Below, in pieces: positions 25,177-26,625 of a DNA stretch of 64,000 bases. The translations under genes and the position numbers were made by a program. Each line of letters begins with the position of its first letter. Within the stretch, counting starts at the first letter, position 1. The notes beneath the pieces are model-generated. The model was given only the letters and a program-made list of their open reading frames with translations, was not told the origin of the DNA and did no database searches. Source of the stretch: Escherichia coli 042 (GTDB taxonomy: Bacteria; Pseudomonadota; Gammaproteobacteria; Enterobacterales; Enterobacteriaceae); NCBI RefSeq assembly GCF_000027125.1, contig NC_017626.1; one strand, given 5' to 3'.

Positions 25177-25218
25177 TGCGTAACTGTTATGCTCTGGATT
25201 ATTGGTAATGACTCCAAC

Positions 25219-25722
25219 TTATTGATAGTGTTTTATGTTCAGATAATGCCCGATGACTTTGTCATGCAGCTCCACCGATTTTGAGAACGACAGCGACTTC
25301 CGTCCCAGCCGTGCCAGGTGCTGCCTCAGATTCAGGTTATGCCGCTCAATTCGCTGCGTATATCGCTTGCTGATTACGTGCAGCTTTCCCTTCAGGCGGG
25401 ATTCATACAGCGGCCAGCCATCCGTCATCCATATCACCACGTCAAAGGGTGACAGCAGGCTCATAAGACGCCCCAGCGTCGCCATAGTGCGTTCACCGAA
25501 TACGTGCGCAACAACCGTCTTCCGGAGCCTGTCATACGCGTAAAACAGCCAGCGCTGGCGCGATTTAGCCCCGACGTATCCCCACTGTTCGTCCATTTCC
25601 GCGCAGACGATGACGTCACTGCCCGGCTGTATGCGCGAGGTTACCGACTGCGGCCTGAGTTTTTTAAATGGCGGAAAATCGTGTTGAGGCCAACGCCCAT
25701 AATGCGGGCGGTTGCCCGGCAT
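25219..25722 (-). CDS. insB: IS1 transposase InsB
   Basis: 167 aa [29 protein letters not shown]..., canonical IS1 InsB. Confidence 0.9.
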
Positions 25723-25916
25723 CCAACGCCATTCATGGCCATATCAATGATTTTCTGGTGCGTACCGGGTTGAGAAGCGGTGTAAGTGAACTGCAGTTGC
25801 CATGTTTTACGGCAGTGAGAGCAGAGATAGCGCTGATGTCCGGCGGTGCTTTTGCCGTTACGCACCACCCCGTCAGTAGCTGAACAGGAGGGACAGCTGA
25901 TAGAAACAGAAGCCAC
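25641..25916 (-). CDS. insA: IS1 protein InsA
   Basis: 91 aa [42 protein letters not shown]..., canonical IS1 InsA, overlapping insB as expected for the InsAB' frameshift arrangement. Confidence 0.9.
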
Positions 25917-25971
25917 TGGAGCACCTCAAAAACACCATCATACACTAAATCAGTAAGTTGGCAGCATCACC

Positions 25972-26625
25972 TGGATTATTTAATTCTTTCAGTGGGAATT
26001 TTTCCTCGAAGGCTTTATTTAGCCGCCCCTGGTTTCTTTTTACAGCGAATAAATAATCACCGCCCTGTTTTTGTATCTTCTCTGCAATATCTTTCTGGCA
26101 ACCCATCGTATCAGTTGTGATGATTTTTCCTTTAATATCCAGCATGTTAAGAAGTTATGGGATAGCTGTAATCTCATTAGATTTCTCATCCGTCTTGATC
26201 TGTCCGATGACCAGACTGTGCATTGTTGAGAACGCACTAATGACATGAATCGCTCCCCTGCGGCGACTCTTGTCATAATAGTGCCGGAGCGTTTTTCCAT
26301 CAATTGCGATGACGTCTTTATCATCTGAAGTATGGCAATCTCGCATCCAGTTAATAAAGCACTCGTGAAATTTTGCAGGACTGATACAGGATACAACTCT
26401 GGCAATGGTATCGTGGACAGGCATACCATTTTCAAAATCACCATATTGCTTCAAAAAATCGATATGTGTTTCACCAAAATCCTCTATATCTTCCCAACCT
26501 TCTGCACCCGAAATAACGGCACAAATAGTCAACAGTAGAATATCCGATAATTTATGTTCCACTTTCCAGGCTTGTCTGTAATCGGGGGTAATAGAAATAT
26601 GTTCCATCAATTTTTTAAGTTCCAT
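25972..26625 (-). pseudogene. ISAs1-family transposase, N-terminal portion with premature stop
   Basis: ORF 26155..26625 matches the copy 1 N-terminus but ends at ...EITAIP; copy 1 has cctgaa where copy 2 has ccataa (TAA stop); remaining sequence is in shifted overlapping ORFs. Confidence 0.75.

Follow-up and report, generated by a model that had tools for sequence, protein, structure and literature searches.

How a mobile element came to be broken twice within one gene, and in which order, is the question raised by the second of two H-rpt elements lying between nfrB and cusS in the window (the whole stretch of 64,000 nucleotides that was analysed). We conclude with great confidence that its transposase gene first acquired a stop codon and that a genuine IS1 transposition into the same gene followed later. 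The window is an Escherichia coli chromosomal segment carrying the sfm fimbrial genes, nfrA and nfrB, an AT-rich island, cusSR/cusCFBA and ent/fep. The nfrB-cusS island, with a GC content of 40% where the window as a whole has 50%, contains orphan toxin and immunity genes plus the two H-rpts, which belong to the ISAs1 family and share the same orientation. An HNH-fold toxin gene, WD40-like genes, a PAAR-like gene and a SUKH-3 immunity gene are all found in this island, in the window as in relatives. Two adjacent 346-aa paralogous genes (window 28607-30871), annotated in relatives as WD40/YVTN/BNR-like repeat proteins, sit between the PAAR-like gene and the HNH-fold toxin gene and have in common a 300-nt stretch at 98% identity with a spacing of 1152 bp. 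Elsewhere in the window (45740-46705), a hok/sok-type toxin-antitoxin locus is tandemly duplicated beside entD with a period of ~503 bp and 97-98% identity, so that the Rfam sok model matches twice at full length (82-84 bits) and two Hok-like ORFs are present.

The two H-rpts and the lesions of the second are laid out as follows.

22551..23841, minus strand: H-rpt/ISEc1-like element copy 1 (1291 bp), bounded by perfect 11-bp terminal inverted repeats CAGGGAAAGAT
22561..23697, minus strand: transposase gene of copy 1, an intact ORF of 378 aa
24702..26769, minus strand: H-rpt/ISAs1-family element copy 2, interrupted, 2068 bp (1291 + 777), delimited by alignment with copy 1
25195-25203, unstranded: left target-site duplication tggattatt, aligning to the single copy of strain AGR6137
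25204..25971, minus strand: complete IS1, 768 bp, with its gene-strand left end (IRL) at 25971
25972-25980, unstranded: right target-site duplication tggattatt, aligning to the same single copy
26155..26157, minus strand: premature TAA in the copy 2 transposase gene (codon 157), from a tandem substitution at 26157-26158

Members of the ISAs1 family in ISfinder measure about 1.2-1.5 kb, have terminal inverted repeats starting CAGGG and are flanked by a target duplication of 8-10 bp. Both H-rpts agree with the family in size and ends, each being 1291 bp long once IS1 and one 9-mer are subtracted. No flanking target duplication was found for either copy, the 12-nt flanks of both sharing no repeat; this fits old insertions or recombined flanks and is irrelevant to the homology of the transposase. 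The copy 1 transposase matches the NCBIfam ISAs1 model NF033564 over its full length (positions 1-314 of a 314-position profile; 406.4 bits, cut-off 70), contains the Pfam domains DDE_Tnp_1_assoc (PF13808, residues 8-94) and DDE_Tnp_1 (PF01609, residues 102-343), and is the protein WP_000420757.1, annotated in strains A10 and AGR6137 as 'ISAs1-like element ISEc1 family transposase'. With its gene at full length and both ends perfect, copy 1 is structurally competent.

Between the two H-rpts lies a small module on the same strand.

24063..24727, minus strand: module between the H-rpt copies, made of the two features below
24527-24727, minus strand: 66-aa deaminase-like toxin-tip ORF (Pfam YwqJ-deaminase, E 3.5e-4, under the gathering score)
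24063-24524, minus strand: SUKH-3 immunity gene (Pfam SUKH-3, E 5e-12)

The start of the 66-aa ORF falls within the terminal 26 nt of copy 2. Downstream of the SUKH-3 gene, an 89-aa YD-repeat-like fragment (23776-24045) runs into the end of copy 1. In Rhs-associated orphan modules a core or toxin C-terminal fragment precedes its cognate immunity gene; of the corresponding parts here, the SUKH-3 match is clear, and the deaminase-tip and YD-shell matches (the latter with Pfam E 0.027) lie below threshold. The 66-aa ORF, the SUKH-3 gene and the 89-aa fragment look like orphan toxin-tip/immunity remnants cut by H-rpt insertions. With the exception of SUKH-3, Pfam and NCBIfam gave only sub-threshold matches for the small neighbouring ORFs, and a BrxL_ATPase match on one of them was taken as spurious. 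H-rpts have been described near Rhs C-terminal tips, and transposition of an E. coli H-rpt has remained unobserved (PMC3032704); the island matches that described setting.

Identification of the interrupting element is straightforward. Its ends read ggtaatgactcc... from 25204 and ...ggcagcatcacc up to 25971; each 23-nt end pattern occurs once in the 64-kb window, with 0 occurrences expected by chance, and the two ends agree at 18 of their first 23 positions. Over its 768 bp the element is 100% identical to the copy of plasmid R100 (NC_002134.1 21225-21992), which we take to be the R100/NR1 isoform called IS1R in ISfinder, and likewise to many further plasmid copies; it differs from the K-12 IS1A at 7 nt. 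Its coding features are the following.

25641..25916, minus strand: insA, 91 aa, covering positions 1-81 of the NCBIfam IS1 transposase model
25219..25722, minus strand: insB reading frame, 167 aa (matches NCBIfam NF033558 at 143.8 bits, cut-off 100)
25659..25665, minus strand: intact A6C -1 frameshift motif (AAAAAAC) joining insA to insB

InsA also matches the IS1/IS1595 zinc-binding domain, and the two frames cover NF033558 in complementary parts (positions 1-81 by InsA, 76-199 by InsB). The A6C motif TTTAAAAAAC begins at IS1 position 304, and a simulated -1 slip at this motif yields a 232-aa InsAB' without interruption. IS1 is described as an element of 768 bp with imperfect repeats of ~30 bp and an A6C motif, which encodes a 232-aa InsAB' and duplicates 8 or 9 bp of its target (PMC12428005). 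The length and ends, the insA-insB overlap with its A6C motif and a duplication within 8-9 bp were all found here, and the IS1, judged by its sequence, is complete and apparently functional.

Both junctions carry the signature of transposition. On the gene strand the right-hand 9-mer is AATAATCCA, corresponding to codons 216-218 (N-N-P) in phase 0. A c precedes each tggattatt, which gives an apparent 10-nt repeat; the duplication is nevertheless 9 bp and not 10, because the right-hand c is the final base of the canonical IS1 end. An exact 9-mer repeat flanking the element at fixed positions would have a chance of about 4e-6. The repeat finder shows the start-to-start spacing of the H-rpts rising from 2151 to 2928 across the insertion, the difference of 777 being equal to 768 + 9, and pairwise alignment of copies 1 and 2 shows one continuous insertion in copy 2 with no further indel in the coding region. 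The target is AT-rich, with 34% GC within 25 nt either side of the insertion. The junction between H-rpt and IS1 reads …gctctggattatt / ggtaatgac… (slash at the boundary), and the 30-mers TGCTCTGGATTATTGGTAATGACTCCAACT and GGCAGCATCACCTGGATTATTTAATTCTTT would serve to recognise it. The sequence-only reading had placed a complete 768-bp IS1 inside the copy 2 transposase gene between direct repeats of tggattatt and had regarded it as a genuine transposition event; alignment with the R100 IS1 and realignment of the junctions, where the 9-mer is duplicated, bear this out, as do empty sites with a single 9-mer in strains AGR6137, CFSAN061770 and A10.

The second lesion lies upstream in the same gene. 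When IS1 and one 9-mer are removed from copy 2, a frame of 1137 nt collinear with copy 1 is restored, which differs from it at 33 nt and 17 codons and is interrupted only by a stop at codon 157. There the gene strand reads ccataa (CCA TAA, P-stop) in copy 2 against cctgaa (CCT GAA, P-E) in copy 1, a change of two adjacent bases. This stop and the IS1, which splits the gene at codons 216-218, both fall within the Pfam DDE_Tnp_1 domain (residues 102-343). Together the stop codon and the insertion leave copy 2 unable to make transposase, for two independent reasons. The same reading had proposed as much, describing copy 2 as doubly inactivated by the IS1 and by a separate TAA and copy 1 as intact; the alignment of the two transposase genes and the full-length ORF of copy 1 agree on both points. 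We add to it the order of events, the tandem two-base nature of the nonsense change and a degenerate terminal repeat in copy 2. The latter is the 3'-end repeat, CAAGGCAAGAT, with 2 mismatches to CAGGGAAAGAT, while the other end is perfect; it is possible that this constitutes a third defect, common to relatives. The H-rpt end and its flank have a further match, tctttccctgaca, on the minus strand at 26915-26928 of the window, with 13 nt identical to 26760-26772; it lies 146 bp outside copy 2, within a small hypothetical gene, and could be a remnant or a chance match.

Are the two lesions found together in other strains? The comparison set consisted of 5,426 complete E. coli genomes and excluded the window's own genome. 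A 4.9-kb query spanning both H-rpts recovered the same locus minus 777 bp in 90 of these genomes, and in none of the 90 was IS1 present at the locus. In AGR6137, copy 2 is annotated as an intact ISAs1 transposase gene of 1137 nt with a single tggattatt, on which the window flanks of IS1 meet in a three-way alignment; outside IS1, the 1404 aligned nt otherwise differ at nothing but the CA/AT stop dinucleotide. The TAA allele was searched for with a 41-mer centred on the dinucleotide, which seeds only when the dinucleotide matches, and was detected in 142 of the 5,426 genomes, nearly always at one place per genome. In the three TAA-allele genomes that were inspected (3/3), the allele lies at the same locus and bears the NCBI 'internal stop' flag. 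Two genomes so annotated, CFSAN061770 and A10, have the TAA allele, one tggattatt and no IS1, so the nonsense change is independent of IS1, as had been suggested from the window. The left IS1 junction probe gave no single-piece match in the 5,426 genomes, only two-piece coincidences at other loci.

By the 25 kb beside the locus, the closest relatives of the window genome are GN25 and A10, both at 100.0%. A10 possesses both H-rpts, the TAA and a single tggattatt, with 4 differences from the window in ~8 kb (~8,000 aligned bases). The sole difference within copy 2 is the start codon (window 26623), ATG in the window and ATA in A10, which is further pseudogene decay in this relative.

As the TAA occurs in 142 genomes, none of which carries the IS1 junction, the stop codon is the older, widely inherited lesion and the IS1 the later one, the insertion appearing only in the window genome. 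This order rests on parsimony (142 genomes against 0), and a precise excision of IS1 would leave a single 9-mer too. The converse scheme, in which IS1 came first and the stop codon afterwards, or in which the stop codon is a sequencing error in the assembly, draws on the fact that the window by itself does not decide the order of the two lesions; given the identical TAA allele in 142 independent complete assemblies with this IS1 in 0 of them, and the near-identical A10 with its TAA and clean single tggattatt, we regard it as highly improbable, the more so as an IS1-first order would need many precise excisions. Donation of the TAA by gene conversion from another H-rpt bearing ccataa was considered and rejected, the allele being found at one place per genome.

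Under the preferred order, stop codon before IS1, the sequence of events is as follows. In an ancestor common to many strains, a tandem two-base change, directly visible in the alignments, converted codon 157 of copy 2 from GAA to TAA. Later, and only in the lineage of the window genome, an R100-type IS1 entered codons 216-218 of the already dead gene. The insertion and its duplication are observed, and the cutting mechanism we infer from what is established for IS1: InsAB', produced by a -1 frameshift, would have bound both ends of the element and linked them to target strands cleaved at a stagger of 9 bp, and gap repair in the AT-rich target would have duplicated tggattatt. IS1 of this isoform is widespread on plasmids, with at least 4,960 plasmid records matching it at 99% identity or more.

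A further explanation holds that transposition took place in another H-rpt copy or another strain, and that homologous recombination or gene conversion then brought the IS1 segment into copy 2. H-rpt copies are indeed numerous (a median of 4 matching places per genome) and do recombine, and IS1 abuts truncated H-rpt copies at other loci. Yet both IS1 flanks carry copy 2-specific variants up to the duplication and are 100% identical to the orthologous copy 2, the junction occurs in no other genome searched, and other IS1/H-rpt junctions lie at different positions, which leaves this route with a very slim probability. The example of H-rpt recombination is M7424 (NZ_CP063153.1), where a single hybrid H-rpt takes its 3' part from copy 1 and the rest, including the TAA, from copy 2. 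A group II intron (ltrA) lies at the join, equivalent to window 22754/22755 and 24905/24906, and the strain has lost the toxin-tip and SUKH-3 module that separates copy 1 from copy 2, a loss that points to recombination between the two H-rpts.

In GN25 (NZ_CP139196.1 3479000-3487000, equivalent to window 16272-26680), a different IS1, of the IS1A type, has the 5' leader of copy 2 (window 26680) on one side and mid-nfrA (window 16272) on the other. The associated deletion of ~10.4 kb has removed both H-rpts, the SUKH-3 gene, nfrB and part of nfrA. That this might be the same insertion as in the window followed by an adjacent deletion was rejected, since the GN25 element belongs to the IS1A isoform (7 nt different), runs in the opposite direction and differs at both junctions.

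The weakest alternative, that the IS1 is a misplaced repeat created during assembly, appeals to its multicopy nature and to the poor handling of such repeats by short-read assemblers, but is scarcely conceivable as a misplaced repeat would not yield an exact 9-bp duplication, canonical ends and a frame-preserving 777-bp geometry.

A more speculative reading is that the insertion has consequences. The 66-aa ORF and the SUKH-3 gene lie directly downstream of copy 2 on the same strand and may depend on read-through transcription from the H-rpt gene. The IS1 could then lower expression of the SUKH-3 gene by polarity, or raise it from a promoter within IS1, in which case the resistance of the strain to a competitor's toxin would be changed. 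Additionally, the 156-aa N-terminal product encoded by the TAA allele, which is widely kept, might act as a regulator of other H-rpt copies. A scan for promoters and terminators over 23700-26900 gave no more sites than shuffled sequence and thus lends no support to an effect on expression. Overall, we consider it very unlikely that the IS1 is non-neutral through the downstream SUKH-3 gene or that the 156-aa product regulates other H-rpts. A literature search on H-rpt/ISEc1 mobility returned mostly ISEc12 and unrelated 'iSEC1' papers.

The locus is a routine nested insertion, part of the ordinary decay of mobile elements, and both families are well known. No new mechanism, family or function is indicated and no defining feature of IS1 fails. 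It has little importance beyond annotation, but provides a clean, datable case of an IS landing within an IS, in which the order of events is resolved. Its IS1 junction, apparently private to the window genome, could serve as a strain marker. More broadly, the nfrB-cusS island has been eroded repeatedly by mobile elements, through the IS1 of the window, the IS1 and 10-kb deletion of GN25, and the intron and H-rpt recombination of M7424.

Compared with known systems, the H-rpt/ISEc1 elements of E. coli Rhs regions (e.g., yhhI of RhsB) are likewise ISAs1/ISEc1 elements with CAGGG ends and adjoining toxin-tip/immunity fragments; unlike them, the window pair resides in the nfrB-cusS island with no full-length rhs gene alongside. 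Copy 2 is a 97%-identical H-rpt variant, and neither it nor copy 1 displays a visible target duplication. In ETEC H10407 (yhhI of RhsB) and MLI023K1 (near yafV), IS1 directly abuts an ISEc1-family transposase pseudogene, so the juxtaposition of IS1 with a truncated ISEc1 is not unusual; the loci and positions differ, however, and the H-rpt is truncated there and lacks one part, whereas the window keeps both halves and the duplication. With the IS1 family at large the window element shares the overlapping insA/insB, the A6C site, the 232-aa InsAB' and the 9-bp duplication, and with the IS1 of plasmid R100/NR1 it is the same at every base, the insertion site alone being different.
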